Below are positions 1,522 through 30,891 of a stretch of DNA of 32,612 bases, in pieces. Source of the DNA: an uncultured Planctomycetia bacterium (GTDB taxonomy: Bacteria; Omnitrophota; Gorgyraeia; 1-14-0-20-64-10); assembly GCA_964373295.1 (NCBI GenBank), contig CAYJUA010000001.1, positions 85,600 to 118,211 on the forward strand, written 5' to 3'. Under the pieces are notes generated by a model. That model was given only the letters and a program-made list of their open reading frames with translations. It had not been told where the DNA came from and searched no databases. The position numbers and the translations under genes are program-made. Every line of letters starts with the position of its first letter. Position 1 is the first letter of the stretch.

Positions 1522-3445
1522 GCAGAAGCGGATCGCCAACGCCTACTACACCTACGGGATCCTCTATCTCTCTGAAAGTTTCAAGCGGTGGGAGAACGCT
1601 CAGGGGGAGCCGTATCGGCAGTACCGCCGCGCCTGGGCGCATCGGGCGGAGCGCCTGGACCATGGGGAGTTCCCCCTGAACCTCAATGTCGAGGTGACGA
1701 CCCGCTGCAATCTGGCCTGCACCTTCTGCGCCCACTCGAGCCTCGCGGAGGAACAGAGGTTCGACATGCCCTGGGAGATGTACGCCCGGCTCATCGAGGA
1801 GGGCCAGCGGCATCGGACCCCCGCAGCCAACTTGAACGGCCTGGGGGAACCGATGCTGGTGCCGGACCTGCCGCGATGGATCCGCCTGGCCAAGGAGCAC
1901 GGCTTCCTGGACGTCATGTTCCACACCAACGGCACCCTGATGACACAGCGGCAGGCGCAGCATCTCATCGAATCAGGCCTTGACCGGATCATCTTCTCCG
2001 TGGACTCGCCCGACAAGGCCACCTACGAGGCGATGCGGCTGCGCGGCCGGTGGGAGCAGGTGGTGGCCAACGTGCGGCGCTTCCGCGAGACCCGCGAACG
2101 CCTGGGCTGGCAGACCCCCCTGATCCGGACCACCATGGTGGTGACCGACCGCACCTTCCACCAGGTCCCGGACTTCGTCGACCTTTGGAAGCCGGTGGCG
2201 GACCAGATCACCCTGCAGGACCTCACCTGGCGGACCAAGACCTTGGAGCGGGGATCCTGGGTGAACCAGGAGAAGAGCGCGATCCCCTCCGACCTGGACA
2301 CGATCCGGCAGGAGGCGAAGCGCCGGAAACTCTCCTTCGTCTGCCCCTACCTCTACCAATCGGCCTACGCCTACGGCAACGGCGACGTCATCCCCTGCAG
2401 CAATCCCAATGCCCGGAAGTTCATGGTGATGGGCCGCCACGACCGGGAGGGGATGGCCGGGGTCTGGCAGGGCAAGCCGTACCGGGAGCTGCGCCGGCTT
2501 CACGCCGAGGGCCGATGGGACGAGCACCCGGTCTGCCGGGAGTGCGAGATCCCCCTGATCGAGCTGTACAAAGCGATGCGGCAGCAGGACGCCTCGGATT
2601 CGGACTCGGCCGCCCCCCCGGTCGCTTCCTCCCTGGCGCCCAAGGACGGCTCGGGGGAGGACCTCGTCCTGCAGTGCCAGAAGGAGCAAGGGGCGTCCTC
2701 CTCGCAGACGGGAGGCTCCGGCTCCCGGATGAAACCGCGCCTCTCGATCGTGATCGCCACACACAACCAGGAGGGCACCCTGGAGAGGGCCCTGCAGAGC
2801 GCCCTCCAACAGGACGCAGGGCCAGGGCATCATGAGGTGATCGCCGTGGATGACGGCTCCACCGATCGGACGCCGGAGATCCTGCGCGCGTACGCCGGGC
2901 GAATCCAGGCGGTCCGCCAAGAGAACCAGGGCCTCGCCGCGGCCTGCAATGCCGGGCTGGCGCAGGCGCGTGGAGAGTACTTCGCCCGGCTCGATTCCGA
3001 CGATTGGGCTGCGCCCTCCTGGCTGCGGAAGCTGGCAGACCTGCTCGAGCAGCACCCGGAGGCCTGCGGCGCCTACCCGGACTACACGGAGCTCTGTGAG
3101 CAGGACCGCCGGGTCTTGCAGCCCGCGCACGAGGACAATCTTTACTCGCTTCTGGCCTGCGGCACCCTTTTCCGCACGCAGGCCCTCCGCGCCGTGGGCG
3201 GGTACCGGGCCCTCTTCTGGGAGGAGTACGACCTGTACCTGCGCCTGCGGGAGCGCGGACCGCTGCTCCATCTGCCCGAGCCTCTGTATTTCGTCCGGAA
3301 ACACCCCGACAGCATGACGGCCAGCGCCGCCCGCCGCCGGCAGGGATGGAAAGAGCTCCTCGGGCTCTGGAGCCCCGAGCAGCTCCGCTCCGCCGGATGG
3401 GATCCGGAGATGGAGGAGGCGGTCGCCGAGGCCCCCGCCGCATGA
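1505..3445 (+). CDS. Fusion protein: radical SAM/SPASM-domain enzyme (N-terminal) + family 2 glycosyltransferase (C-terminal)
   Basis: ATG 1505 overlaps the upstream stop. CNLACTFC is the CxxxCxxC radical SAM motif. Auxiliary Cys motifs CPYLYQSAYAYGNGDVIPC and CRECE are SPASM-like. A Ser/Asp/Gly-rich linker follows. From the in-frame Met at 2729: LSIVIATHNQ, VIAVDDGSTD and ARLDSDD form a GT2 (GT-A, DxD) signature. There is no stop between the halves. Confidence 0.85.
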   Translation: MPPTPEQKRIANAYYTYGILYLSESFKRWENAQGEPYRQYRRAWAHRAERLDHGEFPLNLNVEVTTRCNLACTFCAHSSLAEEQRFDMPWEMYARLIEEGQRHRTPAANLNGLGEPMLVPDLPRWIRLAKEHGFLDVMFHTNGTLMTQRQAQHLIESGLDRIIFSVDSPDKATYEAMRLRGRWEQVVANVRRFRETRERLGWQTPLIRTTMVVTDRTFHQVPDFVDLWKPVADQITLQDLTWRTKTLERGSWVNQEKSAIPSDLDTIRQEAKRRKLSFVCPYLYQSAYAYGNGDVIPCSNPNARKFMVMGRHDREGMAGVWQGKPYRELRRLHAEGRWDEHPVCRECEIPLIELYKAMRQQDASDSDSAAPPVASSLAPKDGSGEDLVLQCQKEQGASSSQTGGSGSRMKPRLSIVIATHNQEGTLERALQSALQQDAGPGHHEVIAVDDGSTDRTPEILRAYAGRIQAVRQENQGLAAACNAGLAQARGEYFARLDSDDWAAPSWLRKLADLLEQHPEACGAYPDYTELCEQDRRVLQPAHEDNLYSLLACGTLFRTQALRAVGGYRALFWEEYDLYLRLRERGPLLHLPEPLYFVRKHPDSMTASAARRRQGWKELLGLWSPEQLRSAGWDPEMEEAVAEAPAA

Positions 3446-4332
3446 CGCACCCCGCGCGCGCCCCGCGGACCGCGGTGATCGCCGAGATCGGCGAGAACCA
3501 TCTCGGCCGCCTGGATCTGGCCCTCCGGATGCTGGAAGAGGCCGCGAGGGCAGGGGCCGACATCGTCAAGTTCCAATCGTACCGCGGCGGCGACGTGGAT
3601 CCCGGCGATCCGGAGCGGGAGTGGTTCAGCCAGGTGGAGCTGACCGATGACATGCACCGGCAGCTCAAGCGCCGCGCCGAAGAGCTTGGGATCCAGTTCC
3701 TCAGCTCCCCCTTCACCGTGGAGCGGGCGCGGTTCCTCTGCGAGGATATGAGCCTCCGGAGCGTCAAGATCGCCTCCTCCGAGATACTGAACCTTCCCCT
3801 CTTGGATTACGTCAACCCGAGGGTGGAGACGGTCTATCTCTCCACGGGCATGTCCACCCTCGAGGAGGTCTCTCTGGCCCTGGGCCATCTGGACCACCCG
3901 CGGGTGGTCATCCTCCACTGCGTCACGCAGTATCCGGCCCGGGATGAAGACGCGAACCTCCTTGCCATCCCCACGCTCCAGGAAGCCTTCCCGGAACGGG
4001 CGGTGGGATACTCCGATCACACGACGGGGATCGAGGCCGCCGTCGCGGCGGCGGCGCTGGGAGCGGCGGTCGTCGAGAAGCATTTCACCCTGAGCAAAAA
4101 CCTTCCCGGCACCGACCATGTCCTTTCCGCCACCCCGGAGGAGCTGGCCGAGATGATCCGAAGGATCCGGCGGGTGGAGGGGCTGCTGGGAAGCGGCTCC
4201 AAGGAGCCGGCGGCCGCCGAGCGGGAGATCCGCGACGCCGTGCGCAGCCGCTGGCGAAAGCAAGAGGCGTCCCCTTCGCGAGCTGTATCGGCCCCCTCAG
4301 CCGGTACCGGGCACTGCGGTACGCATAAATGA
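3442..4332 (+). CDS. NeuB-family (N-acylneuraminate/nonulosonate synthase-like) protein lacking the C-terminal SAF domain
   Basis: ATG 3442 forms an ATGA overlap with the upstream stop. NeuB TIM-barrel motifs: AVIAEIGENHLG, ADIVKFQSY, VKIASSE, VYLSTGMST, ILHCVTQYPA, GYSDHTTG, VEKHFTL. The ORF ends about 30 aa after the barrel, and its last ~15 codons are repeat copy R1-a. Confidence 0.8.
   Translation: MTHPARAPRTAVIAEIGENHLGRLDLALRMLEEAARAGADIVKFQSYRGGDVDPGDPEREWFSQVELTDDMHRQLKRRAEELGIQFLSSPFTVERARFLCEDMSLRSVKIASSEILNLPLLDYVNPRVETVYLSTGMSTLEEVSLALGHLDHPRVVILHCVTQYPARDEDANLLAIPTLQEAFPERAVGYSDHTTGIEAAVAAAALGAAVVEKHFTLSKNLPGTDHVLSATPEELAEMIRRIRRVEGLLGSGSKEPAAAEREIRDAVRSRWRKQEASPSRAVSAPSAGTGHCGTHK
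4283..4328 (+). repeat. GGTACC-rich palindromic repeat, family 1, copy a
   Basis: CTGTATCGGCCCCCTCAGCCGGTACCGGGCACTGCGGTACGCATAA. By hand alignment, about 40 of 47 columns match copy b at 23591-23637. It lies at the NeuB-like / MBL gene junction. Confidence 0.85.
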
Positions 4333-9280: not shown

Positions 9281-11330
9281 TCTGACGCACACGGGACTGG
9301 GGATCGCCACCGAGGCCTTCCCGCTCAACGTGGGCCTCGTCGCCTCCTACGCCCAGAAAAGGTTCGGCAGGGAAGTGGAGATCTCCCTCTTCAAGTACCC
9401 CGAGGAGCTGAGCGAGGCCCTGGCCAAAGCGCCGCCCGACGTGCTGGGATGCAGCAACTACACGTGGAACAGCCGGCTCGCGGACCATTTCGCGCAGATC
9501 GCCAAGGCCCTGAAGCCGGACCTCCTCACCGTTTTCGGCGGGACCAACTACCCCTTCGATGCCCAGAACCAGAGGATATTCCTGGAGCGCAGGCCATGGC
9601 TCGACGCGCACATCTTTTACGAGGCCGAGGCGGCGTTCTCCCTCCTCATCGAGAGGATCCTTTCCTCGCCCGGCAGGCAGCGCTGGCTCGAGGAGCCGAT
9701 CCCCGGCTGCCAGTTCCTCCACCCGCAGAGCCGGACGCTCTGCGCCGCGGCCGCCCCCCCTCGGATCCAAGACCTCGACTCGATCCCCTCCCCCTACGCG
9801 ACGGGCCTCTTTGACCGGTTCTTCGACGGCAGGCTGACCCCCCTGCTGGAAACCGCCCGGGGCTGCCCCTTCACCTGCAACTTCTGCAACGCCGGCGCCT
9901 CCTACTTCACCCGGGTCAACCAGTTCAGCGACGCCTACGTCCGGGAGGAGTGGGAGTACGTGGCCCGCAAGGCCGAAGCCGCGGGGATCGGCCACCTGAC
10001 CCTGGCCGACAACAACTTCGGCATGCTGCCCAGGGACACGCAGACCGCCGAGCTCATGCACGAGCTCCAGCGGCGGTATGGGTGGCCCCGTTCGGTCACC
10101 GCCTGGACCGGCAAAAACAGCAAGAAGCGGGTGATCGACGTCACCCGCCTGCTGGGGGACACCCTGGTGATCAGCATGGCCGTGCAGTCCATGGATGAGA
10201 AGGTTCTCAAGACGATCGCCCGCTCCAACATTCGACTGGAGGACTACCGCGCCATCGCGCAGGAGCTCAACGCCCAGGGCAGGCCCCAGGTGGGGGAGCT
10301 CATCGCCCCGCTCCCCGGAGACACCTGGGAGTCCTACCTTCGGGGGGTGCACCAGCTGCTGGACGCGGGGGTGAGCACGATCCTCGTCCACACCCTGCAG
10401 ATGCTCCACGGCACCCCCTACAAGGATGACCCCCGCTTCATCGCCGAGCACGGATTCCTCCGCAAGCACCGGCTGGTCCCCCTGGACTTCGGCACCTACG
10501 ACGGCCGAATGCTCTTTGACACGGAGGAGGTCGGGGTGGCCACGAAGACGTTCTCCCTGGAGGAGTACGTCGAGTCGAGGAAATACCTTCTCCTCGTGGA
10601 TCTCTGCTACAACGGCACGGTCTGCGAGCCGCTGAAGAGGTACCTCTCCGAGCGCGGGATCCGGATGTCGGAGTGGATCCATTCCCTCCATCTGCGCAGC
10701 CCCGATTTCCCGGCCCCCGTGAAGGCCGTCTTCGACAGCTTCGGCGCGGAAACCCGGGCTGAGCTGTGGGACACCGAGGAGCAGCTCGTGGAATTCTACT
10801 CCAAGCCGGAGAACTACCGCAGGCTCCTCCAGGGAGAGATCGGTGGAAACGTTCTCTTCAAACACAAGGTCCGGATGCTCGCCGAGCGGGGCAGGGAATG
10901 GATCGACGCCGTCTTCTCCCTTTCCCAGGAGCTTCTCGACCGCCGCGCCGCCGGCCCGGAACCGCAGGCCGGAGAGGAGCTGGAGGAACTGCGGCGCCAC
11001 ATCCTCTGCTGCCTGGCCGATGCGTTCCGCCTGGGGGCGGAGGAGAAGCCGGTGACCGCCGAGTTCCGCTACGACATCCCCGGCTGGATGAGCCGTCCGG
11101 CGGCCCCCTTGGGGAGCTTCCGGCGGCAAGGATCCTTTCAGGTGGATTTCGAGTTCACCCAGGAGCAGCGCCTCCTCCGGGTGGAGGCGCTCCGCCGCTA
11201 TGGGGCGCATCCGGCCGCCATCGTCAAATGGATCCAGCGTCTCGCGGGCATCCAGCGCCTCATGCGTCAACCCCATGTGGAAACCCCCGATGTTTCTGGC
11301 CACCACAGCCCTGTCCGAGTTCTGGGATAA
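9207..11330 (+). CDS. B12-binding-domain radical SAM protein (class B-like)
   Basis: RIYLADLTHTG..., DVLGCSNYTWN and LLTVFGGTNYP form an N-terminal B12-binding-type domain. GCPFTCNFC is the CxxxCxxC motif. No ATG is available; candidate starts are TTG 9207 (GAGG 6 nt upstream) or TTG 9261. Confidence 0.8.
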   Translation: MLPRTHPCAGFSRRKNAPLRIYLADLTHTGLGIATEAFPLNVGLVASYAQKRFGREVEISLFKYPEELSEALAKAPPDVLGCSNYTWNSRLADHFAQIAKALKPDLLTVFGGTNYPFDAQNQRIFLERRPWLDAHIFYEAEAAFSLLIERILSSPGRQRWLEEPIPGCQFLHPQSRTLCAAAAPPRIQDLDSIPSPYATGLFDRFFDGRLTPLLETARGCPFTCNFCNAGASYFTRVNQFSDAYVREEWEYVARKAEAAGIGHLTLADNNFGMLPRDTQTAELMHELQRRYGWPRSVTAWTGKNSKKRVIDVTRLLGDTLVISMAVQSMDEKVLKTIARSNIRLEDYRAIAQELNAQGRPQVGELIAPLPGDTWESYLRGVHQLLDAGVSTILVHTLQMLHGTPYKDDPRFIAEHGFLRKHRLVPLDFGTYDGRMLFDTEEVGVATKTFSLEEYVESRKYLLLVDLCYNGTVCEPLKRYLSERGIRMSEWIHSLHLRSPDFPAPVKAVFDSFGAETRAELWDTEEQLVEFYSKPENYRRLLQGEIGGNVLFKHKVRMLAERGREWIDAVFSLSQELLDRRAAGPEPQAGEELEELRRHILCCLADAFRLGAEEKPVTAEFRYDIPGWMSRPAAPLGSFRRQGSFQVDFEFTQEQRLLRVEALRRYGAHPAAIVKWIQRLAGIQRLMRQPHVETPDVSGHHSPVRVLG

Positions 11331-13080
11331 AAGGCAGCAGATCCTTTTCCTCGGCCCCTGGTGCCAGCGGGAGGACCGGCGGCCGGATTGGGAAGGAATC
11401 CGGGGAAGGGTGCTGCCCAGCCCTTGGGATGACCCGGAGCGCTACCACCAGGCCGCCGGGTATGTGAACGGGGTCTACGAGCGGACGCTGTATCGGCTGG
11501 CCGATCGTTTGAACCAGGCCCATGGCCTGCGCGCTTCCCCCCGCTACTGGCGAATCCTCCTGGGCCCGTGGCTGATGCACTACCTCCATGCCCTCTACGA
11601 CCGGTGGGTCCATCTCCAGGAAGCCCTCCGTGCGGACCCCGGGCTCACGACGATCCTCCTGGACCCGGCCTGTCACGAGGTGCCGCGCAGCGGCCGGCAG
11701 TTTTTCCGCTGGATCCTGGAAGACCGGTACAACCTCCAGCTCTTCTCTCAGATCCTCACCCTCCGAGGCAAATCCCTCCCCACCCGACGCTTGGCTCCGG
11801 AACCCGGGGGAGGGGTCCCGCCCCGGCAAGGACCGCGGATCGCCGGAGCGATCCGGAAGGCCGGATCCGCCGCGTCCATCACCGTCTCCAGACTCCTGAT
11901 GAGCCGGGGGGAGGTGGGGATCGCGCACGCGGATCTCTCCGCGCCTTCTCTCTGGAAGCTGATCCTGTCAACGGGCTTGAGGGCCGTTCCCCTCTACCTG
12001 GACCGCGAGGAGGATCCGGCCCCTTCCGAACCCCTTTTGGACGACCGCAGGAAAGGTCTCGCCTCCGGGGAGGGCGGGGACGACTTTGAGAAACTCCTCG
12101 CCTCCACTCTGCCCCAGAACTTCCCCACCTGCTACCTGGAAGGGTTCGCCTCCGCTCGCGCGAAGGCCCTGGCCAGGGCTGGCCGGACCCCTCCCGTCCT
12201 GCTGTCTGCCTACGGCTGGTACTTCCACGAGGAGTTCCAGTTCCTGGCGGCGGAGGTCGCCGAGCGGGGCGGAAGGCTCCTGGCCGCCCAGCACGGCGGC
12301 GGCTATGGGGTCTATCGCCTGGCCCCCCAGGAGCGTCATGAACTGCAGGTCGCGGACCGCTTCCTGGCGTGGGGCTGGGGCGGCGGCAATGGGGACCGGA
12401 CGGAGAACCTCCCCTCTCCAAAGCTCTCTCAGCTCGTTGGCCTGCGCGGGCCCGCCCGGAGGGGGACCGCGCAGGGCAGCGCCCTCTTTGTCGCCACGAC
12501 CAATCCCCGCTACTTCTATCGCTTCTACTCCTCGCCCCAGGCCGCCCAGCTGGCAGATTACTTCCGTTGGCAGCGGCGCTTCCTCCGAGCCCTGCCGGAG
12601 ACCGCCCGCCCCCAGCTTCTTTTCCGCGGCCATCCCGAGGACTTCGGACACAAAACCCGGCAGCAGCTCAGCGCCGACTTCCCGTGGCTGCGGTGGGACG
12701 GAGACCGCTCCTTCCGGAGAGCGGTCTCCAAAACACGCCTGGTCCTCATTGACCACCTCGGAACCTCGCTGCTGGAGGCGCTGGCGGCCGACCGGCCCCT
12801 GGTGGCCTGGTGGAACCCCAGCCATTGGGCCGTGAGGGAGGAGGCGCGTCCGTTTTTCGAAGACCTGCTCGAGGCCGGGATTCTCTGGCACGATCCGGAG
12901 AAGGCCGCCGCCCATGCGGCGGCTGTGTGGAAGGACCCCCGCGCCTGGTGGTCTCGGCCGGAGATCCAGGAGGCGCGCCGCCGATTGCTCGAGCGGTTCG
13001 CCTGGGGACGGACCTGCTGGGCGGAGGAGTGGGCCGGGATGCTCAGGCGCCAGGCCCTCCCGCGGGCGAGGGAGGCATAG
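11290..13080 (+). CDS. Large uncharacterised putative transferase (resembles the LIC12162-type family of Leptospira O-antigen loci)
   Basis: ATG 11290 (ATG 11275 is also possible). The N-terminus MFLATTALSEFWDKRQQILFLGPWC matches, from memory only, the LIC12162-type putative transferase signature. I can verify no catalytic motif by eye. Coding status is supported by length, codon bias and operon fit. Confidence 0.65.
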   Translation: MFLATTALSEFWDKRQQILFLGPWCQREDRRPDWEGIRGRVLPSPWDDPERYHQAAGYVNGVYERTLYRLADRLNQAHGLRASPRYWRILLGPWLMHYLHALYDRWVHLQEALRADPGLTTILLDPACHEVPRSGRQFFRWILEDRYNLQLFSQILTLRGKSLPTRRLAPEPGGGVPPRQGPRIAGAIRKAGSAASITVSRLLMSRGEVGIAHADLSAPSLWKLILSTGLRAVPLYLDREEDPAPSEPLLDDRRKGLASGEGGDDFEKLLASTLPQNFPTCYLEGFASARAKALARAGRTPPVLLSAYGWYFHEEFQFLAAEVAERGGRLLAAQHGGGYGVYRLAPQERHELQVADRFLAWGWGGGNGDRTENLPSPKLSQLVGLRGPARRGTAQGSALFVATTNPRYFYRFYSSPQAAQLADYFRWQRRFLRALPETARPQLLFRGHPEDFGHKTRQQLSADFPWLRWDGDRSFRRAVSKTRLVLIDHLGTSLLEALAADRPLVAWWNPSHWAVREEARPFFEDLLEAGILWHDPEKAAAHAAAVWKDPRAWWSRPEIQEARRRLLERFAWGRTCWAEEWAGMLRRQALPRAREA

Positions 13081-17098: not shown

Positions 17099-18218
17099 CA
17101 CGCAGAAGGTCGGGGAAGGATACGACCTCAACGAGTACCCCGCGTACACGTCGTTCATTTACGGTGAGCAGACCTGGGGGCCCCTCTTCTCCCAGGGGGA
17201 CGGCCCGCCAATCCCCTTCACCGACAACAGCGCGGCGGTCTACATCCAGGAGTCCCTGAAGGTCCTCCGAATGGCGCCGGAGGACCTCCGCGGCAAGTCG
17301 GTCCTCAACATTGGTTCCGGGCGTGAAGCGGCGATCTTCCAGAAGCTGGGCGCCGGCCGCGTGACTCATCTGGACATCTCCAAGCGCAGCGTGGAGAACA
17401 CCCAGCGCTATGCCAAGCAGATGGGGATCGCGAACCTCGTCGGTGTACACGCCGACATCCAGACGGCCGATCAGCCGGCCGAGCAGTTTGACCTGATCTT
17501 CCTCGCCGGGATCTACCAGCACATCCACTGCCCGGCCAAGGCGCTGCTAAACCTGGCCCGGATGATGCGGACCGGCGGGAAGATGTACTTGGGCTTCTTC
17601 CGCTCCGGCGAATGGAAGTACTTCATCGTCGACGCGATCCGGCACCTGATCAGCCGGGACCTTTTCGCCGTCACCAAGTCCAAGATCGCCCTCTCCCTGT
17701 CCTTCGGGCAGGGGACCCATTACCAGATGACCCGCACCCTGGACGATCTCTTCGTCCCCTGCCAGCACAAGTTCCATCCCCGGGACGTGATCCATGACGC
17801 CGAGCGCGTCGGCCTCGGGATATTCCACTTCGACAACGACCTGCGGGAGTATGCCCATGAGGGGTCAGGCTATTTCTCGATCGGCGGGGACCGGATCTAC
17901 CTGGTCAAGGAGCGGACCCCCGCCCGCCCGACGGAACTGTCCGAGATGAAGACCGAGCAGGGGCGCCACCAGCTTCGGGACGTGCCGTACCAGGAGGAGA
18001 TCATCCTCTCCAACATCCACCTCATCGAGAAGCTCCGGGCGATGGTGGACCACGGCGTGATCCCCCGGGACGACCTGGCCACGCTGGCCCTCAACCTGTA
18101 CCGGTTCACCCGGCCCTTCGCTCCGGAGCAGGATGAGTACTACCAGCGGAGCATCCGCAACGGGCGGCACCGGACGCTCCACGAGTACCTGACCAACGTG
18201 ATCTCCTACTTCGAGTGA
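17091..18218 (+). CDS. Class I SAM-dependent methyltransferase with a C-terminal extension
   Basis: GTG 17091 overlaps the upstream stop by 8 nt. VLNIGSGRE (motif I), VTHLDIS, FDLIFLAGIYQHI and MRTGGKMYLGFF. Confidence 0.75.
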   Translation: MASTQKVGEGYDLNEYPAYTSFIYGEQTWGPLFSQGDGPPIPFTDNSAAVYIQESLKVLRMAPEDLRGKSVLNIGSGREAAIFQKLGAGRVTHLDISKRSVENTQRYAKQMGIANLVGVHADIQTADQPAEQFDLIFLAGIYQHIHCPAKALLNLARMMRTGGKMYLGFFRSGEWKYFIVDAIRHLISRDLFAVTKSKIALSLSFGQGTHYQMTRTLDDLFVPCQHKFHPRDVIHDAERVGLGIFHFDNDLREYAHEGSGYFSIGGDRIYLVKERTPARPTELSEMKTEQGRHQLRDVPYQEEIILSNIHLIEKLRAMVDHGVIPRDDLATLALNLYRFTRPFAPEQDEYYQRSIRNGRHRTLHEYLTNVISYFE

Positions 18219-18220
18219 CG

Positions 18221-18889
18221 ATGAAAAGCTTCCGGGCCGTTGACGTCGCGGTCATCGTGCTGAACCAGAACCAGGGGGTTTTCCTGGAGCGCTGCATCCG
18301 CAGTTGCCTCGCCCAAACCTTCCCCGGGCGGTTCCACGAGGTGATCGTGGCCGACGCCGGGAGCACCGACTTCTCCCGCGAGGTGATCCACAGCTACGGC
18401 CGGCGGATCCTCCCTCTCACCCTGGACCCCCAGAGCACCCTCGAGGACGCGGCCGCCGCGGGCATCCGCAAGGCGACCAGCGCTCGCTACGTGCTGCTCG
18501 TGCGGGCCCAGGATTTCCTGGCCGACTACACGGTCCTGTTCCAGTGCGTCTGGCTCTTCCAGAACCATGATTTCGAGGGGGTGCGGCCCGACTACTGGCT
18601 GGTGGACCCCGACACCGACGCGAAGCTCCACCGGATCTCGGGGCTGGAGTTCGCCAATCCCTTTGGCGTCATGTTCCGGAAGGAAGTCTTCGTGCGGGAG
18701 GGGCTGTACGAGATCGGCGCCCGCCAGCATCCGCACCTGCTGCAGGCCGAGTGGATGGGCAGGTACCCCCTCGGACACCTCTCGCTCCCGTTCTATCGAT
18801 ATCACCAGGACGCCCGCACCCGGATCCTGGATACCCTTACACCCGGCATCGGGCACTCTGTGCCGCGTAAAGAGCAGGCGAACCCGTGA
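18221..18889 (+). CDS. Short family 2 glycosyltransferase-like protein
   Basis: ATG 18221 (the track starts at GTG 18215). VAVIVLNQNQGVFLERCIRSCLAQTF and EVIVADAGSTD are GT-A N-terminal motifs. The canonical DxD is not obvious (VRAQDF). Confidence 0.7.
   Translation: MKSFRAVDVAVIVLNQNQGVFLERCIRSCLAQTFPGRFHEVIVADAGSTDFSREVIHSYGRRILPLTLDPQSTLEDAAAAGIRKATSARYVLLVRAQDFLADYTVLFQCVWLFQNHDFEGVRPDYWLVDPDTDAKLHRISGLEFANPFGVMFRKEVFVREGLYEIGARQHPHLLQAEWMGRYPLGHLSLPFYRYHQDARTRILDTLTPGIGHSVPRKEQANP
18827..18870 (+). repeat. Possible degenerate copy of the family 1 repeat
   Basis: CCGGCATCGGGCACTCTGTGCCGCGTAA aligns with CCGGTACCGGGCACTGCGGTACGCATAA of copy a (about 20 of 28 by hand). It is read in the same frame (GIGHS versus GTGHC / GTGHS) and again lies at the 3' end of a gene. 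Confidence 0.35.
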
Positions 18890-20797: not shown

Positions 20798-22778
20798 TCC
20801 CAAAGCGGACCCCCTGGAGGGGATCCTGGACCACCGCGCCCAGGCGATCAAGGTGGGGACCCGCCACATCGGCTCTACGTTCCCCACGTACATCATCGCG
20901 GAGATCGGGATCAACCACAACGGTTCCCTGGAGCGCGCCCAGCGGCTGATCAACGCGGCGGCGGAGGCCGGTTGCGACGCGGTGAAGTTCCAGAAGCGGT
21001 CCCTGGAGGACCTCTACACCCGAGAGGTCCTGGAAAACCCCAATCGGTTCGAGGAGGGGTTCCAGTACTTCATCCCGATCCTCCGGGAGGTCGAGTTCGG
21101 TCGGAAGGAGTACGACGAGCTGGCCCGCCACGCCCGGGCGAAGAACCTCGAGTTCCTCTGCACCGCCTTCGACGAGGCCTCTCTCGAGTTCCTGGAACCG
21201 TACCGCCTGGCGGCCTACAAGGTGGCCTCAGCCGACTTCACCAACTTCCTGCTGCTGCAGAAACTGGTGGAGAAGCGCAAGCCCCTGATCCTCTCCACGG
21301 GGATGGCTTCCCAGGAGGAGCTGGACCGGGTGGTCGGCTTCCTCTTCAAGCGCAGCGTTCAGTACATGCTCCTCCACTGCGTCTCGGTCTACCCCACGCC
21401 GCCGGAGGACGCCCACCTCAACTACATCCAGACGATGCGGGAACGCTACGGGGTGCCGGTGGGGTACTCCGGGCACGAGGTCGGCTTCGAGATCACCCTG
21501 GCGGCCGTGGCATCGGGGGCCTGCCTGGTGGAGCGGCACGTCACGCTGGACCGGAAGATGGAAGGGCCGGATCACACCTCGTCGCTGGAGCCGGAGGAAC
21601 TGCGGGAGATGGTCCGCAGGATCCGGCTGATCGAGCGGGCGCTGGGCAGCCCCGCACGGGTCCTTTCGCGCGGGGTGATCCGCACCCACGAGATCCTTTC
21701 CAAGTCCCTGGTGGCCGCCGTGGAGATCGCCCCGGGAACGCGGATTCGACGGGAGATGGTGACCGCCAAGGGCCCCGGCAAGGGGTTGAGCCCCTTCTAC
21801 CTCCAGGAGCTCCTGGGGAAGACCGCCCGCCGCGCCATCCGCCGCGACGACTACTTCAAGCCCGAGGACCTGGAGGAACACAGCGAGTCGGCGCGGATCC
21901 CCTCGTTCGAAACGGCCTGGGGTTTCAAGGGCCGCTTCCACGACCTGGACAGCTACGTCCGCTACGCCCCGAAGCTCGTGGAGGTGCACCTGAACGACCG
22001 GGACGTGGAGTACCCCTTCGAGCAGCACCACGGGGAAAGTCGATACCCCTTCGCGATCTACCTCCACTGTCCCACCTACTGGTTCCGAAGCGTGCTGAAC
22101 CTCGCCTCCGAGAACGAGCCGGAGCGGCGCGAGCACATCCAGGTGGTCCAGCGGGTCATTGACCTGGCCCGCCGGATCGCTCCCCGCTTCCAGGGGGACC
22201 CCACGGTGATCATCCATCTGGGCGGGATGGACATCGTGGAGATCAAGGAGGCCCAGCGCCTGAAGGAACTCGCCTACGACTCGATGCGCCGGCTGGACTG
22301 GAAGGGGGTGCGCTTCCTCCCGGAGAACATGCCCCCGAGGCCCTGGTACTTCTCCGGTCAGTGGTACGACAACGTCTTTTGTTCCGCGGAGGACATGATC
22401 GAGGTCTGCGGGAAGTTCGGGCTGAAGATCTGCCTGGACCTCTCCCATGCGAAGCTCTACACCAACTCCACCGGAACCGATTACTGGGAGTATCTGGCCA
22501 AGGCCGCCCCGCACGCCGCGCATCTCCATGTGGCCGACGCCTACGGCATCGATGGGGAAGGGGTGCAGATCGGCGAGGGGGAGGTGGATTTCTCCAAGGC
22601 CTTCACCGTCCTGGCGGAAAACGCCGACCTCTCCCAGACCAGCTGGACGCCTGAGATCTGGCAAGGCCACCTGCACCAGAACCAGGGGTTTCTCACCGCC
22701 CTCGAGCGCCTCGCCGTGATCCCTCAGCTTCGGCCACTGTGGGCCGCCTCCTCGGAGCTCAACGGTCATGGGGCTTAG
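20784..22778 (+). CDS. NeuB-family nonulosonate synthase with SAF domain, fused to a xylose-isomerase-like (AP endonuclease 2) TIM-barrel domain
   Basis: The start is probably TTG 20784 (GGAGG about 10 nt upstream); GTG 20853 would cut into the conserved N-terminus. NeuB motifs: YIIAEIGINHNG, CDAVKFQKR, YKVASAD, LILSTGMAS, LLHCVSVYPT, GYSGHEVG, VERHVTLD. SAF-like segment: SLVAAVEIAPGTRIRREMVTAKGPGKGLSP. From about nt 21880, TIM-barrel motifs: VEVHLND, VIIHLGG, FLPENM, LDLSHAKL, HLHVADAYG. Confidence 0.85.
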   Translation: MDFLDPKADPLEGILDHRAQAIKVGTRHIGSTFPTYIIAEIGINHNGSLERAQRLINAAAEAGCDAVKFQKRSLEDLYTREVLENPNRFEEGFQYFIPILREVEFGRKEYDELARHARAKNLEFLCTAFDEASLEFLEPYRLAAYKVASADFTNFLLLQKLVEKRKPLILSTGMASQEELDRVVGFLFKRSVQYMLLHCVSVYPTPPEDAHLNYIQTMRERYGVPVGYSGHEVGFEITLAAVASGACLVERHVTLDRKMEGPDHTSSLEPEELREMVRRIRLIERALGSPARVLSRGVIRTHEILSKSLVAAVEIAPGTRIRREMVTAKGPGKGLSPFYLQELLGKTARRAIRRDDYFKPEDLEEHSESARIPSFETAWGFKGRFHDLDSYVRYAPKLVEVHLNDRDVEYPFEQHHGESRYPFAIYLHCPTYWFRSVLNLASENEPERREHIQVVQRVIDLARRIAPRFQGDPTVIIHLGGMDIVEIKEAQRLKELAYDSMRRLDWKGVRFLPENMPPRPWYFSGQWYDNVFCSAEDMIEVCGKFGLKICLDLSHAKLYTNSTGTDYWEYLAKAAPHAAHLHVADAYGIDGEGVQIGEGEVDFSKAFTVLAENADLSQTSWTPEIWQGHLHQNQGFLTALERLAVIPQLRPLWAASSELNGHGA

Positions 22779-23637
22779 GCGCAAACTCGCCCAGATCCGG
22801 ACCAAGATCCACTTGCGGTTGAAGCTCCCCGGAGAGCCGGTCGCCCTCCTGGACTACCCCCGCAGCCCGGTCCGGATCGGCGTCTCCTCTCCGATCGAGT
22901 ACCACACGCGCCTGCACTCCTGCGAGAAGGAGCCGGAGACGGTCCGCTGGATCGAGCAGGAGATGGCCCGGGGAGACGTCCTGTACGACATCGGAGCCAA
23001 CGTCGGTGTCTATACCCTGGTGGCCGCCGCCTTCTGGGGGGAGCGGATCCGGATCGTCGCCGTGGAGCCGAGCCCCATCAACTTCGCGCGGCTCGTGCGG
23101 AACCTGGCGCTGAACCGATGCGGCGGCCGGGTGATCGCCCTCCCCGTGGCCCTGGCCGACCGCACGGGGCTCGCGCCGTTTCATTGCCAGAATCTGGCGG
23201 CGGGGGGGTCCCTGCACGCTCTGGGGGAGCCCCGCGACCACCGCGGCGAGCCGTTCGCCCCCGTGGCCAGCATCCCCACGCTCAGCTATGACCTCGATAC
23301 CCTGATCGAGCAATTCCACCTGCCGGAGCCGACCCACCTGAAGCTCGACGTGGATGGGACCGAGCTGGCGATCCTCCGCGGCGCCCGGCGCGTCCTGGAC
23401 ACCGCCCGCAGCGTCCTCGTCGAAGTGGACGACCACCGCCCCGACGGCTCCACGATCCAGGCGCTCCTCGAAGAGCACGGCTTCCGCATGAGCGGCCGCT
23501 ACCCCTACCGATACGGCAAGAAGTTTCCCCAGTTCGGCGGCATCTCCAACGTCGTCTTCCAAAAGCAAGAGGCACCCCGATCTTTGCGAACGGTACCGGC
23601 CCCCTCTACCGGTACCGGCCACTCCGGTATCGCATAA
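22768..23637 (+). CDS. FkbM-family SAM methyltransferase
   Basis: ATG 22768. VLYDIGANVGVYTL and HLKLDVDGTELAILRGA are FkbM-family signatures. The last ~15 codons are repeat copy R1-b, whose TAA is the stop codon. Confidence 0.85.
   Translation: MGLRRKLAQIRTKIHLRLKLPGEPVALLDYPRSPVRIGVSSPIEYHTRLHSCEKEPETVRWIEQEMARGDVLYDIGANVGVYTLVAAAFWGERIRIVAVEPSPINFARLVRNLALNRCGGRVIALPVALADRTGLAPFHCQNLAAGGSLHALGEPRDHRGEPFAPVASIPTLSYDLDTLIEQFHLPEPTHLKLDVDGTELAILRGARRVLDTARSVLVEVDDHRPDGSTIQALLEEHGFRMSGRYPYRYGKKFPQFGGISNVVFQKQEAPRSLRTVPAPSTGTGHSGIA
23591..23637 (+). repeat. GGTACC-rich palindromic repeat, family 1, copy b
   Basis: CGGTACCGGCCCCCTCTACCGGTACCGGCCACTCCGGTATCGCATAA. It carries three CGGTAYCG modules; the self-complementary CCGGTACCGG copies can pair with one another. 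It ends 1 nt before the next gene's GTG start. Confidence 0.9.
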
Positions 23638-23638
23638 C

Positions 23639-25552
23639 GTGAGCAGCCGGATCCTCATCACCGCGCCCTCCTCCCTCGGGCGGTGGGCGCACGCCGGCTC
23701 CTCTTCATCCTGGGTTTACCTTGGGACCGACCTCAGCCGTCGCGCCTCTGCGGAGCGCGCGCTCGGCGCAGAGCGCCGCCTGGAGATCGGGCCGCGCCTC
23801 ACCCAGGCGATGTCTGCCTTGCGACAGCCGTTCTTGGATCTCATCGCCTCTATCGGCGCGGAGCAGACCGACCCTCTCGGATGGTGGTCCAGCCGCTTCT
23901 CCTGGAAGATGTGGACCACTTCCGATCTGTTCCTCCTGATTTGCTGCCTCTGCGTCGCCCGAGACCTCGCGTGCGAAACGCGAAAGAGCGGCGGCTCCCT
24001 GGTGATCGTTGTGGAGGATCGCTGGCTCCTGCGGCAGATCCAGGAGATTCTCGCTGCCGGGCCCGAGCTCGCCGGCTCTCCCGGCGCGCCTCAGGTGCGG
24101 GGAAGGATCGGCCTCGCCGGCGAGAAGACCCGGTTGGTCTTTCTTGGGGCGGCCCGCCGCGCCCGCTGGCTTTGGACGACCCTACGCAACCATTGGCGCC
24201 AGCGCGCGCTCTGGCCGCGGGAGGGGTGGGCTGCACCGGAGCGCCCCGCTGCCGCCATCTGCTCCTATCCCCTCCGCAGCTCGATGACGGGGAGGAACGG
24301 GTGGGAAGACCACCATCTGCCGGGGCTCGACCGTCTCCTGTCAGAGGAAGGGTGGCGGGTGATGCGCTTCACGCCGCCGGACTGCCCGGGCTTCGAAAAG
24401 GATCTGGCGGCGCGCGCCTCCTCCTTCCGGCCGCTGGTCCTCTTCGCCACGCCCCGCCGGGTCTGGCGCTCCCTTCTGGCCCTGTGGCGCCCCCGCTGGC
24501 CGGCCGATCCCAAGGTCGGAGAGCTCTCGGTCGGCTGGCTCCTCCGCCGGGAGTGGTGGTTGGACGTCGGCCGCAGCTCCTTCTGCGGCTTCCGCCTCTT
24601 CTATGAGACGCTGGATGCGCTGCTTTCGCGCGGCTCCTGGGGCCCGGTGATCTTCTCCTACGAGAACCAGCCGTGGGAGAAGCTGACCGTGCTGGCTGCC
24701 CGGCGCCATGGGGCCAGCACCTGCGGCATCCAGACGGCGATCCTCTCCCCCGACTACCTGCCCTACGCGCTGGGGAAGGAGGAGGAAACGCGCATCCCGC
24801 TGCCCGATTCAGTCCTGACCTCCGGCCCTTACGCACGGCGAGTTCTGGCGGAGGGGGGCATGCCCTCCGAACGGCTGCAGATCTGCGGCGCGATTCGGTA
24901 CCAAGCGCTGGTGAAAGCGGCCACAAATCTAAAATCGGTACCGGGTACCATCTCAGGTACGGTACCTGGTACCGCTCTTCGATCGCGGGTGCTGGTCGTC
25001 CTGCCGATCCACCCCCCGGTCTGCGAGGACCTCCTGGAGGCGATCCGCCGCGCTTTTCCCGACGGTGGGAAGGCCGACGGGCTCGAGCTCACGGTCCGCC
25101 CGCATCCGCTTTACGCGGCGGGGGCCGCCCGGCTGCGGTTCCCGGCGCGCGTCCTGCCCTCCAGCTTCCGGGACATCGGCGAGGCTCTGGCGGACTGCGG
25201 GCTGGTCCTCTTCGCGGGCAGCACGGTCGGATTCGAGGCAATGGCTCAGGGCGTACCGGCGCTGCGCTACCGTCCGGAGACCACCCTGGACGTGGACCTC
25301 GATGTCTACGGGGACGCCGTTCCCCTCTGCGGGGAACGGGACCTGCGGGAAGCGCTGCTCGGGCTCATCCGCCGCGGCCCACCTCTGGGCTGGGAGGAGC
25401 GGACCAGGGAGCGCGTTCTCCAACTCTTTGCCCCCTTTAACGCAAGGGGCGTCCGGGAAGCTTTCGGGCGTGGTAAAATAACGAATTTAAGCGGATTCCT
25501 TCCCGATGATCAGCTTGAGCCAGACGCCGCCGGGCAACGGCAGGGACCCTAA
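23639..25552 (+). CDS. Large uncharacterised protein with a GT-B-like C-terminal half (putative surface-carbohydrate transferase)
   Basis: GTG 23639. ICGAIRYQALVKA, a linker, then RVLVVLPIHP..., LTVRPHP and LFAGSTVGFEAMAQGVPALRY resemble a two-Rossmann glycosyltransferase. The linker holds repeat copy R2-b. The 3' end overlaps the next gene by 47 nt. Confidence 0.65.
   Translation: MSSRILITAPSSLGRWAHAGSSSSWVYLGTDLSRRASAERALGAERRLEIGPRLTQAMSALRQPFLDLIASIGAEQTDPLGWWSSRFSWKMWTTSDLFLLICCLCVARDLACETRKSGGSLVIVVEDRWLLRQIQEILAAGPELAGSPGAPQVRGRIGLAGEKTRLVFLGAARRARWLWTTLRNHWRQRALWPREGWAAPERPAAAICSYPLRSSMTGRNGWEDHHLPGLDRLLSEEGWRVMRFTPPDCPGFEKDLAARASSFRPLVLFATPRRVWRSLLALWRPRWPADPKVGELSVGWLLRREWWLDVGRSSFCGFRLFYETLDALLSRGSWGPVIFSYENQPWEKLTVLAARRHGASTCGIQTAILSPDYLPYALGKEEETRIPLPDSVLTSGPYARRVLAEGGMPSERLQICGAIRYQALVKAATNLKSVPGTISGTVPGTALRSRVLVVLPIHPPVCEDLLEAIRRAFPDGGKADGLELTVRPHPLYAAGAARLRFPARVLPSSFRDIGEALADCGLVLFAGSTVGFEAMAQGVPALRYRPETTLDVDLDVYGDAVPLCGERDLREALLGLIRRGPPLGWEERTRERVLQLFAPFNARGVREAFGRGKITNLSGFLPDDQLEPDAAGQRQGP
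24929..24974 (-). repeat. GGTACC-rich palindromic repeat, family 2, copy b (inverted, intragenic)
   Basis: The reverse complement is CGGTACCAGGTACCGTACCTGAGATGGTACCCGGTACCGATTTTAG. Its first 16 nt are identical to copy a at 30848. Five GGTAC(C) motifs fall within about 37 nt. Confidence 0.85.
25471..25479 (+). promoter_or_regulatory. Candidate extended -10 promoter element (TGGTAAAAT) in the only AT-rich patch of the window
   Basis: TGnTAnnnT-type sequence 27 nt upstream of ATG 25506, inside the AT-rich stretch GGTAAAATAACGAATTTAAGCGG. No convincing -35 element. Sigma-70-like recognition is an assumption. Confidence 0.25.
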
Positions 25553-28775: not shown

Positions 28776-29776
28776 CGGAAGCGCTGGCGAACACCAACTT
28801 CCACAAGGTGACAGCGAGGAGCGTCTTCGACACCCGCGCCGCCGATTCGAGGTTCCGGGAGTATCGGCGTCGATGGGACCAATACCCCCGCACCTTCACG
28901 GTGGCAAGCTTCCCCACGCACCTGGACATCGAGTCCACGGGGGTCTGCAACCTCCGCTGCCCCTTCTGCGCCACCGGCACGAAGAACTGGGGGCCGAACG
29001 AGCGCGGGTACATGCAGATGCCTCTGTACCGCGGGATCATCGACGAGGGAGCCGCCGAGGGGCTCTTCGCCATCAAGCTGAGCTTTCGGGGCGAGCCCAC
29101 CCTGCACCAACAGCTGCCCGAGATGGTGGCCTACGCCAAGGAGAAAGGGATCCTGGACGTCTACTTCAACACCAACGGCACGATGCTCACGGAGAAGCTG
29201 GTGAACCGGCTGATCGACGCGGGGCTGGACCGGATCTCGATCTCCTTCGAGGGGATCGAGAAGGAGCCCTACGAGAAGAGCTACCGTGTGGGGGCCAAGT
29301 ACGACAAGGTGGTGGAGAACGTCCGCACTCTGAAGCGGGTCCGGGACGGGCGGGGGCGGGGGATCCCCCAGATCCGGGTGCAGTCGGTGATGCTCCCAGA
29401 GCTGAAGGAGGCCTTTCCCCAGTACGTGGAGTTCTGGAAGCCCCACGCGGACGAGATCTCCTACCTCGACATGCGCCGGGAAAGCCCTCAGGACGACCAC
29501 CGGGGGATGCGCGGGGACTGGGCCTGCCCGTATCTCTGGCAGAGGATGACGATCCTCTGGGACGGGACCACGCTGCCGTGCCCGATGCCGGGGCTGGCCA
29601 ACTTCGACCTGCTGGCGCTTGGAAACGCCGGGGAGAAGAGCATCAAAGAGATGTGGATGAGCCCCGAGAGCATGCGGTACCGGAAGCTCCACCAATCGAA
29701 GCGGGCCCACGAGCTGGAGGCCTGCGACCGCTGCTCCTTCCGGGCGAACGAACTGCAGAAGCTGGGGGAGCGGTGA
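28772..29776 (+). CDS. Radical SAM/SPASM-domain protein (paralogue of the N-terminal half of 1505..3445)
   Basis: GTG 28772 forms a GTGA overlap. CNLRCPFC (CxxxCxxC), VYFNTNGTML, GLDRISISFEG, and the SPASM-like CPYLWQRMTILWDGTTLPC and CDRCSF. Visibly collinear with the 1505..3445 N-terminal half. Confidence 0.85.
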   Translation: MTEALANTNFHKVTARSVFDTRAADSRFREYRRRWDQYPRTFTVASFPTHLDIESTGVCNLRCPFCATGTKNWGPNERGYMQMPLYRGIIDEGAAEGLFAIKLSFRGEPTLHQQLPEMVAYAKEKGILDVYFNTNGTMLTEKLVNRLIDAGLDRISISFEGIEKEPYEKSYRVGAKYDKVVENVRTLKRVRDGRGRGIPQIRVQSVMLPELKEAFPQYVEFWKPHADEISYLDMRRESPQDDHRGMRGDWACPYLWQRMTILWDGTTLPCPMPGLANFDLLALGNAGEKSIKEMWMSPESMRYRKLHQSKRAHELEACDRCSFRANELQKLGER

Positions 29777-30891
29777 AGCGGCGCCTGCTGGACCACCTCC
29801 GCTGCCTCGAATGCGGCTCGCCGCTGCGGGTGGAGAACCCGGTCTTCCACCCCGTCCGGGAGGAAGAGATCATGGGCGGCGCGCTGGCCTGCGCTCGGTG
29901 CGGCCGTTTCTACCCGGTCCGCGCGGGCATCCCCAGCTTCCTGGAGGGGCTGCGCCCGCATGCCCGGACCCGCTCCAGCTTCGGCTACCTGTGGTCCCGC
30001 TCAGCGGAGCGGCCGGAGATGCCGGCCCGGTACCACCTGGACCGAATGCGGGAATCGCTGCGCCTGCCTCCGCCGCAGGGCCTGGTGCTGGACGCCGGCT
30101 GCGGGGAAGGGATCGACCTGATCAACGCCGCCCGAGATTCTTTACGCGATACCCAGTGGCCGATACCCGCAGAGGGGGCCGATACAGCCCTCGAGTCATC
30201 GCGCACCTCTTACTCCGCGGAGCTCATTGGCGTGGAGCTTTCCGATGGCGGCTCCCGCGTGAGCTTCCAACGGGCCTTCTGGCACCCTTCCGTCCACGTG
30301 ATCCAGGCGGACCTCGCCCGGCTGCCGTTCGCCCCGGAGACGTTCGACTTCATCTATTCCTACGGGGTGCTGCACCACCTGCCGGACCCGGCCGCCGGCA
30401 TGCGGGAGCTGGCGCGGCTGCTCAAACCCGGGGCCAGCGCGGCCGTCTACCTGTACGAGGATTTCAGCGACCGGCGCGGACTGTGGCGCTGGATGCTCGC
30501 GTGGACAAACCGGGTCCGCCGGCTGACCCCGCTCCTGCCGCACCCGCTCCTCTACACCCTCTGCATGACCGGCTCGCCGGTGGTCTTTTCCCTCTTCACC
30601 GTGCCGCACCGGATCCTCCGGCTTCTGCCGGCGGCCCGCGGGCTGGCCGAGGGGTTCCCGTTCCGCCAGGGAACCGGGCCCTTCTCGCTCGTGGGGGATC
30701 TGTACGACCGCTTCAGCACCCCCATCGAGCGACGATACAGCCGGGAGGCCGCCCTGGCGCTCCTCCGCGAAGCGGGGCTAAAGGGTCTCCACGCGGAGCG
30801 AAACCGCGGCTGGATGGTCTTGGGCTCCAAGCCGGCGCATGCGGTTTCGGTACCAGGTACCGTTACTGCATGGTACCAGATACCGAGTTAA
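29773..30891 (+). CDS. Trm112-like zinc-ribbon + class I SAM methyltransferase, carrying an in-frame repeat insertion
   Basis: GTG 29773 forms a GTGA overlap. LRCLECGSPL...CARCGRFYPVRAGIPSFL (CxxC...CxxC, GIPxF). VLDAGCGEGID (motif I), LIGVELS, FDFIYSYGVLHHL and LLKPGASAAVYLYE. Repeat R1-c lies between motif I and beta-2. Repeat R2-a forms the C-terminal tail and supplies the TAA stop. Confidence 0.8.
   Translation: MKRRLLDHLRCLECGSPLRVENPVFHPVREEEIMGGALACARCGRFYPVRAGIPSFLEGLRPHARTRSSFGYLWSRSAERPEMPARYHLDRMRESLRLPPPQGLVLDAGCGEGIDLINAARDSLRDTQWPIPAEGADTALESSRTSYSAELIGVELSDGGSRVSFQRAFWHPSVHVIQADLARLPFAPETFDFIYSYGVLHHLPDPAAGMRELARLLKPGASAAVYLYEDFSDRRGLWRWMLAWTNRVRRLTPLLPHPLLYTLCMTGSPVVFSLFTVPHRILRLLPAARGLAEGFPFRQGTGPFSLVGDLYDRFSTPIERRYSREAALALLREAGLKGLHAERNRGWMVLGSKPAHAVSVPGTVTAWYQIPS
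30142..30187 (-). repeat. GGTACC-rich palindromic repeat, family 1, copy c (inverted, intragenic)
   Basis: The reverse complement is CTGTATCGGCCCCCTCTGCGGGTATCGGCCACTGGGTATCGCGTAA, collinear with copies a and b over its full length. It is translated as LRDTQWPIPAEGADTA. Confidence 0.85.
30848..30891 (+). repeat. GGTACC-rich palindromic repeat, family 2, copy a
   Basis: CGGTACCAGGTACCGTTACTGCATGGTACCAGATACCGAGTTAA. Its TAA is the stop of the methyltransferase, and the next gene's ATG follows 2 nt later. Confidence 0.85.

Follow-up and report, generated by a model that had tools for sequence, protein, structure and literature searches.

Why should one short DNA sequence end two unrelated genes of a bacterial gene cluster and lie, inverted, inside a third? 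The question arises in a 32,612-nt stretch of DNA (the window, positions 1 to 32612), the whole of which is a glycan or nonulosonic-acid-type gene cluster, where three copies of a GGTACC-rich repeat (copies a, b and c) had been noticed. The original prediction took the repeat for a mobile or recombinogenic element acting at the level of nucleic acid. We find that orthologous loci of close relatives differ in whether they carry it, and that the element is probably a lineage-restricted, non-autonomous selfish interspersed repeat, recently copied to new sites and filtered by selection.

Architecture and coding context of the copies

The core of the repeat, GTAYCGGCCCCCTCNNNNGGTAYCGG, is present without mismatches at 4285-4310 and 23593-23618 on the plus strand and at 30160-30185 on the minus strand, which is where copies had been proposed. 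The window has 3 core matches, compared to 0 in 100 dinucleotide-preserving shuffles even with 3 mismatches permitted, and a separate repeat search of the window recovered the same three copies (pairs D14, I1 and I2); the three copies are thus real and not due to chance. Run ERR3478686, assembled separately in Logan, also contains copies b and c (L001 and L007), which argues against an assembly artefact. A fourth, partial copy, missed by the original prediction but also recovered by the repeat search (I11), lies at the 3' end of the glycosyltransferase gene 18215-18889, and 15 nt of it are missing at the orthologous junction in the related locus L088.

Alignment extended the repeat by about 30 nt upstream of the core, to a common box (AAGCAAGAGGC), so that the earlier estimate of about 46 nt is replaced by a unit of approximately 72 to 78 nt, consisting of a purine box (AAGCAAGAGGCG), a spacer of 10 to 16 nt, three GTAYCG modules and the sequence CGCATAA. 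The module columns are the most conserved of the 9-copy alignment, while the spacing of the modules varies (approximately 18 and 15 to 16 nt). The family consensus module is GGTATCG, directly repeated three times, and the self-complementary GGTACC is found in some copies only. The term "palindromic" therefore fits copy b better than the whole family, and the self-complementary modules on which the proposed alternative hairpins were based are not a family trait.

Every copy in the window is translated as part of an open reading frame (ORF). Each has one stop-free frame per strand, giving peptides of the type RAVSAPSxGxGH in the forward and WPIPAEGADTA in the reverse direction. As had been predicted, copies a and b are read in the same frame at the ends of their genes, and this forward frame, with RAVSAPSxGxGH-like peptides, is shared by copies in the related loci L002, L004 and L005/L006. 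Copy a encodes the final ~24 codons (KQEASPSRAVSAPSAGTGHCGTHK) of the NeuB-family gene 3346-4332, in which homology to Pfam and PDB entries extends to about residue 297 of 328; the TGA stop of this gene overlaps the ATG of the next gene at 4329 (ATGA), and the element's own TAA (4326-4328) is not read in this frame. In copy b, which forms the end of the FkbM gene 22768-23637, the element TAA (23635-23637) serves as the stop codon, and the following gene begins with GTG at 23639. Copy c is inverted, as proposed, and was additionally found to lie in-frame inside gene 29773-30891 (Trm112 zinc ribbon and Methyltransf_11), where it encodes LRDTQWPIPAEGADTALESSRTSYS between VLDAGCGEG...INAARDS and AELIGVELS, that is, between the helix after S-adenosylmethionine motif I and strand beta-2. 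The element-derived peptides include LRDTQWPIPAEGADTALE and RAVSAPSAGTGH. In an AlphaFold model of the methyltransferase (mean predicted local distance difference test score, pLDDT, 82.8; predicted template modelling score 0.82), the copy c insert is coil with a block-mean pLDDT of 48 to 63, between helix 114-125 and strand 149-155, and the GGTACC-rich C-terminal tail (residues 360-372) has a pLDDT below 50. The inserted peptides are thus predicted to be disordered loops or tails.

Copies of the element in the window
Feature	Position	Strand	Details
Copy a	4256..4329	+	box AAGCAAGAGGCG 4258-4269; modules 4285-4291, 4302-4311, 4317-4323; nhmmer E=1e-18
Copy b	23561..23639	+	box 23563-23574; modules 23591-23599, 23609-23618, 23624-23632; core 23591-23637
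Copy c	30141..30216 (nhmmer start 30140)	-	inside Trm112/Methyltransf_11 gene 29773-30891
Fourth copy, partial	18836..18872	+	degenerate 3' half GGCATCGGGCACTCTGTGCCGCGTAA; nhmmer E=0.044 (weak)

Filled and empty orthologous sites

A comparison of orthologues for presence or absence of the element, as had been suggested, separated filled from empty sites for both copy b and copy c, with orthologues at 76 to 80% identity being empty. For FkbM, all 14 of the 14 aligned relatives, including P0122 at 80% identity, stop before the element-encoded tail PRSLRTVPAPSTGTGHSGIA. Compared to the empty junction in L088, copy b is a net gain of 50 to 54 nt, and it is the sole indel of at least 25 nt in 12.5 kb aligned with L088 at approximately 80% nucleotide identity. 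At the copy c site, the window has exactly 72 nt (24 codons) more than L005, L006 and L094, where the site is empty, and the 25-residue insert is lacking from the methyltransferase homologues P0002, P0003 and P0005 (76 to 79% identity) as well as from all more distant ones. Since these distant homologues are empty too, the insertion is the derived state.

The same methyltransferase site is filled in the homologue P0004 (78% identity), where PGTQGASSLRAVSAPSASIGHSVPH corresponds to the element in its forward frame. In L004, a forward copy with a net gain of 69 nt has its insertion point 4 to 5 nt from the copy c site. The L004 copy and copy c share 68% identity and are no closer to each other than to unrelated copies, and the sequence comparison therefore favors two independent insertions into one permissive loop. 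In-situ inversion was also considered for the opposite orientations at this site and is unlikely, given the 68% identity and the distance of 4 to 5 nt between the insertion points.

No target-site duplication was seen when filled and empty sites were compared at three places (copy c against L005, L006 and L094; L004 against L006; copy b against L088). At the compared sites, 2 to 4 nt of the target were replaced, with boundaries ambiguous by a few nt. Native empty junctions have box-like Shine-Dalgarno contexts of their own, AAAGAAGGGGCG in L088 and GCAGGAGGTCG in L094. Together, these comparisons show that the insertion of the element is polymorphic between orthologous loci, with the outgroups empty, and the proposal of a mobile or recombinogenic repeat at the nucleic-acid level is borne out, also by the reading of both strands and by the further sites described below.

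Further copies and a second GGTACC family

Several more copies, all of them polymorphic, were found in related loci. The contig L005 starts inside a copy (L005:1-45), at a junction that is without one in the window. In L005 and L006, the methyltransferase gene has a copy at its 3' end, a junction that is empty in L094 and L004, and L006 has another copy at the following junction (1858-1931), where neither L005 nor the window has one; the part of this copy at L006:1858-1893 is read in another frame than the remaining forward copies, with a stop within module 1. In L088, a full inverted copy (12118-12192) lies inside the orthologue of gene 23639-25552, in a linker of the 637-aa protein, and a partial inverted copy (11228-11264) is found inside the same orthologue. 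A metagenome scan also identified a copy in an unrelated cobalamin locus (L002), between the stop of an aminotransferase gene and cobQ. In this same locus, a solo box AAGCAAGAGGCG, identical to the box of copy a at 12 of 12 positions, is located at the 3' end of cobQ (L002 ~150-185), 13 nt before the next ATG and with no other part of the element alongside; this box may be what is left of a copy, or it may represent a native Shine-Dalgarno context that gave rise to the 5' end of the element.

In total, approximately 10 full and 3 partial copies were counted in ~60 kb of this clade, a small sample that was partly ascertained through the element itself. All copies are single, not tandem, and each of the seven at junctions points in the direction of transcription. 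The stop codon lies 0 to 2 nt from the next start in copies a and b and in L005 and L006, while the geometry differs in L002 and at L006:1858-1931. Of ~12 known copies, four lie within coding sequences and another belongs to a different locus, and the idea that the element targets only the junctions of this particular operon was consequently abandoned.

Outside the closest relatives, the profile detected no copies in L089 (FkbM 73% identity) or in L091-93 (syntenic loci from metagenome-assembled genomes labelled uncultured Planctomycetia, 61%), nor in 80 GTDB loci totalling 1.2 Mb. The lack of copies at or below ~73% identity and in the GTDB loci indicates that the family is young and confined to one lineage. 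Scanning for the core pattern gave 0 matches in viral contigs and 0 in a collection of genome contigs composed of GTDB representatives, among which this lineage is not included; in metagenomes, only L002, a real copy, and L003 were matched. The latter, at L003:1881-1949 of a JGI metagenome contig, matches the 26-nt core only (nhmmer E ~0.002), in a seemingly less GC-rich context, and is probably a chance match, or else a distant relative of the element. A six-frame translation profile found nothing at E<=10 against 5.8 billion sequences, the peptides being too short for a database of that size.

A second GGTACC-rich repeat was observed at 24931-24975 of the window, where doubled GGTACCNGGTACC is read in-frame (KSVPGTISGTVPGTA) in a linker of gene 23639-25552 (a 637-aa product without Pfam domains), where the L088 orthologue has an inverted copy of the first family instead. 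The tail of the methyltransferase gene in the window (VSVPGTVTAWYQIPS and stop, 30845-30888) is likewise a stretch of the GGTACCNGGTACC type. Across five genomes, this 3' junction thus has three states, namely, empty (L094 and L004), occupied by the first family (L005 and L006) and occupied by the second (window). Doubled GGTACCNGGTACC was found in loci of this clade only, with none in the 1.2 Mb of GTDB loci. At L089:7345-7385, GGTACCNGGTACC forms a perfect 15-bp inverted repeat (CGGTACCTGGTACCG TTT CGGTACCAGGTACCG), and at L002 ~895-945 it is in-frame in CobQ, between the CbiA and GATase_3 domains. GGTACC occurs 24 times in the window (0.74/kb, compared to a median of 0.14/kb in 49 control loci with a GC content above 62%), and the two repeat families account for much of this excess.

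The surrounding window has a GC content of 67% and contains ~27 plus-strand genes in one uninterrupted co-directional run, as supported by third-position GC, with stops and starts overlapping or abutting. These encode two NeuB-family synthases, cytidylyltransferases (CTP_transf_3), B12-binding and radical-SAM/SPASM proteins, FkbM and other methyltransferases, and glycosyltransferases. The gene order is kept in metagenome-assembled genomes labelled uncultured Planctomycetia (CAYJQV01 and CAMTXW01) at a protein identity of ~52 to 61%, and the nearest sequenced relatives of the host are likewise labelled Planctomycetia. The copies sit within long co-directional operons, and no terminator-like or promoter-like sites were seen.

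Origin and nature of the element

If the element is a selfish repeat, its visible distribution would be what purifying selection leaves. At junctions, the forward element lengthens the upstream ORF by ~18 to 24 codons, and as most junction copies place a TAA or an ATGA overlap 0 to 2 nt from the next start, termination-reinitiation of the downstream gene could survive. Translational coupling allows a downstream gene to be translated after an adjoining stop codon by termination and reinitiation, and such coupling may continue here despite the displaced native Shine-Dalgarno sequence. Inside genes, both orientations survive, with the copies placed in surface loops or in linkers between domains, and this is possible given a length of ~72 nt, a multiple of 3, and the stop-free frame on each strand. 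The mover could be a trans-acting enzyme that leaves no duplication, e.g., of the HUH/Y1, REP-associated tyrosine transposase (RAYT) or IS200/IS605 type acting on single-stranded DNA, or the element could spread by recombinational copy-paste. When the first 24 nt were compared with the reverse complement of the last 24 nt in 9 copies, no terminal inverted repeats were found, the best local scores of 3 to 6 being no better than for shuffles (p 0.13 to 1.0). Taken with the missing target duplications, this makes a DDE-type transposition, as known for MITEs (transposable elements of the miniature inverted-repeat type), less likely than HUH/Y1 or recombinational routes, and the MITE-like label given in the original prediction does not hold. 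Integron attC sites (R''/R', RYYYAAC...GTTRRRY) were considered as well and rejected upon inspection, as the ends are ACGCAAGAGG and CGCATAA with no GTTRRRY, and copies also lie inside genes.

Some observations weigh against a selfish repeat. Neither a transposase nor terminal inverted repeats or target duplications were found in the ~60 kb of this clade, and transposition is inferred, not demonstrated; selfishness, and selection rather than targeting as the cause of the surviving positions, are inferred likewise. The copy count is for ~60 kb and not for a whole genome. The resemblance of the 5' box to native Shine-Dalgarno contexts means that the box at copy b could be partly native. Finally, the all-forward junction copies and the uniform phase of the box are a hint of targeting or function. 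The 5' box of six independent forward copies (4258, 23563, L002, L004, L005/L006 and L006:1858) is in one codon phase, (K/T)-Q-E/G-(A/V), which is expected in ~0.4% of cases for random phase, or a few per cent when allowing for the frame reading through into the next gene. Selection against read-through accounts for the forward bias and the box phase partly, but not wholly. One could envisage an element that is more than tolerated, namely, a portable junction cassette made up of a Shine-Dalgarno-like box, a looped-out spacer and a stop codon and inserted in a phase-aware or targeted manner. The box phase in six copies fits this idea, as do the methyltransferase loop that was hit twice in opposite orientations and the linker and junction that were each used by two GGTACC-type families, although we regard it as a rather improbable account. 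If it were true, lineage-specific machinery would recognise the GTAYCG/GGTACC modules and remodel operon junctions and protein loops.

Other explanations were weighed against the same observations. The orientation of the junction copies and the proximity of stop and start (copies a and b, L005 and L006) would also be expected of a functional intercistronic RNA module, in which box, hairpin and stop codon are kept for mRNA stabilisation or translational coupling, as proposed for repetitive extragenic palindromes (REPs) and mycobacterial interspersed repetitive units (MIRUs). A hairpin between modules 1 and 2, with G-U pairs, is possible on the forward strand only, with ~80% of the cells of the 9-copy alignment paired, and in copy a it would place AAGAGG ~5 nt from the AUG. 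This pairing is, however, in no excess over shuffles, and the RNA folding that had been proposed as a check revealed no conserved structure: RNAalifold gave a consensus of -1.2 kcal/mol with 0 compensatory pair changes, and single copies folded with a mean z of ~-0.85 for the forward and ~-0.05 for the reverse strand, most being no better than shuffled sequence. A search of Rfam 15 gave 0 matches, both for the whole window at gathering score and for 23540-23660 at E<=1, and terminator-like sites were lacking. The inverted copies within coding regions, the expression of the same operon without the element in close relatives, and the differing stop/start geometry in L002 and at L006:1858-1931 also speak against an RNA function, which we consider doubtful. 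We find it somewhat easier to imagine, but still unlikely, that the element spreads between junctions by gene conversion or microhomology-mediated recombination, with the Shine-Dalgarno-like box as a homology patch and no dedicated transposase. Such a route is in line with the lack of both terminal inverted repeats and target duplications, with the box-like sequences at the native empty junctions of L088 and L094, with the solo box found in L002 where cobQ has its 3' end, and with the single box codon phase in six forward copies. On the other hand, complete elements, including the box, entered the internal methyltransferase site in both orientations although nothing box-like is present there, and the internal copies in L088 are inverted.

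The three GTAYCG modules might alternatively be arrayed binding sites of a protein that recognises DNA or RNA, e.g., in regulation or nucleoid organisation, given that the direct modules are the most conserved columns and that GGTACC is ~5 times denser than in GC-matched control loci. This possibility, raised in the original prediction, gained no support and is very unlikely, as close relatives differ in presence or absence at the same loci, module spacing and palindromic character differ between copies, and neither a candidate binding protein nor a regulatory context was seen for copies that lie inside operons without promoter-like sites; a mobilising enzyme might just as well recognise the modules. 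The common forward frame in a, b, L002, L004 and L005/L006 had also left room for protein-level selection on a peptide motif, GTGH[SC]G, conserved at the C terminus. This is refuted by orthologues without the tail and by in-frame inverted copies, with copy c and L088 translating the opposite strand; moreover, the different frame used at L006:1858-1893 reaches a stop within module 1, disorder is predicted for the peptides, and DNA similarity exceeds peptide similarity, so that a peptide motif can practically be discounted.

A selfish interspersed repeat thus being the favored reading, we compared the element with known repeats of this kind. REPs are extragenic by definition, are 21 to 65 nt long, form clear imperfect palindromes and carry a GTAG head. 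Like REPs, bacterial interspersed mosaic elements (BIMEs) and REPIN-RAYT systems, the element is short, GC-rich, dispersed and found in operons, with no terminal inverted repeats or target duplications, and the GTAY before the module 1/module 2 hairpin is reminiscent of the GTAG head. Unlike REPs, it is translated, copy c and L088:12118-12192 lie inside genes, the modules are direct repeats and the hairpin appears weak and unconserved; of the earlier suggestion of a REP-like element, only a loose analogy is therefore left. A closer parallel in behavior is provided by Rickettsia palindromic elements (RPEs; Ogata et al. 2000, as summarised in PMC10969869 and PMC3184786), which are ~105 to 150 nt long and in-frame in unrelated genes. 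As far as those summaries describe them, RPEs share with the present element the short repeat in-frame in unrelated genes, the ORFs, the tolerated surface-exposed positions, the lack of an obvious transposase and the polymorphism between genomes. The permissive in-frame positions seen here are the low-pLDDT loop holding copy c (+72 nt), the L088 linker and, for the second family, the CobQ linker. By the same summaries, the element differs from RPEs in its size (72 to 78 nt), in its weak and apparently unconserved hairpin, in occurring mostly at junctions and not in genes, in its apparent host, a free-living GC-rich uncultured bacterium and not Rickettsia, and in its own consensus, the last being judged by description and not by a direct alignment with RPEs.

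MIRUs (Supply et al. 1997, as summarised in PMC3184786) are described there as intercistronic, co-oriented repeats of 40 to 100 bp with an ORF abutting the flanking stop and start. Going by that summary, the junction copies (a, b, the L005/L006 3' end, L005:1-45, L002 and L006:1858-1931) resemble them in being intercistronic and co-oriented, with a short ORF overlapping or abutting the flanking codons in a GC-rich host. Unlike MIRUs so described, the element is single and not a tandem repeat of variable number (VNTR), occurs also inverted and in-frame in genes, shares no sequence similarity with them and is not from Mycobacterium. Repeats that lengthen gene 3' ends have been documented before (PMC3184786), among them MITEs fusing with ORFs (ERIC, BOX, Correia/NEMIS and QMITE; Delihas 2007, reviewed in PMC10969869 and PMC3184786). 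Within what these reviews report, bacterial MITEs are likewise small and multicopy, encode no transposase, give rise to in-frame 3' extensions or fusions and are polymorphic between strains, whereas the present element has neither terminal inverted repeats nor target-site duplications. We conclude that the element is a new family of a known kind, with RPE-like and MIRU-like behavior but a member of neither group.

The element adds a case outside Rickettsia and Mycobacterium in which a repeat rewrites protein tails, loops and operon junctions while leaving the genes unbroken, and the strength of this case lies in the direct evidence from filled and empty sites in natural populations. C-terminal extensions and odd loops in proteins of this clade should accordingly be read as repeat-derived and not as functional motifs. 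Such repeats also fragment metagenome assemblies, as seen from the L005 contig, and strains might be told apart by their insertion polymorphisms. If the mobilising enzyme were identified, the missing inverted repeats and duplications could point to a REP/RAYT-like or a new mechanism in a poorly studied phylum.

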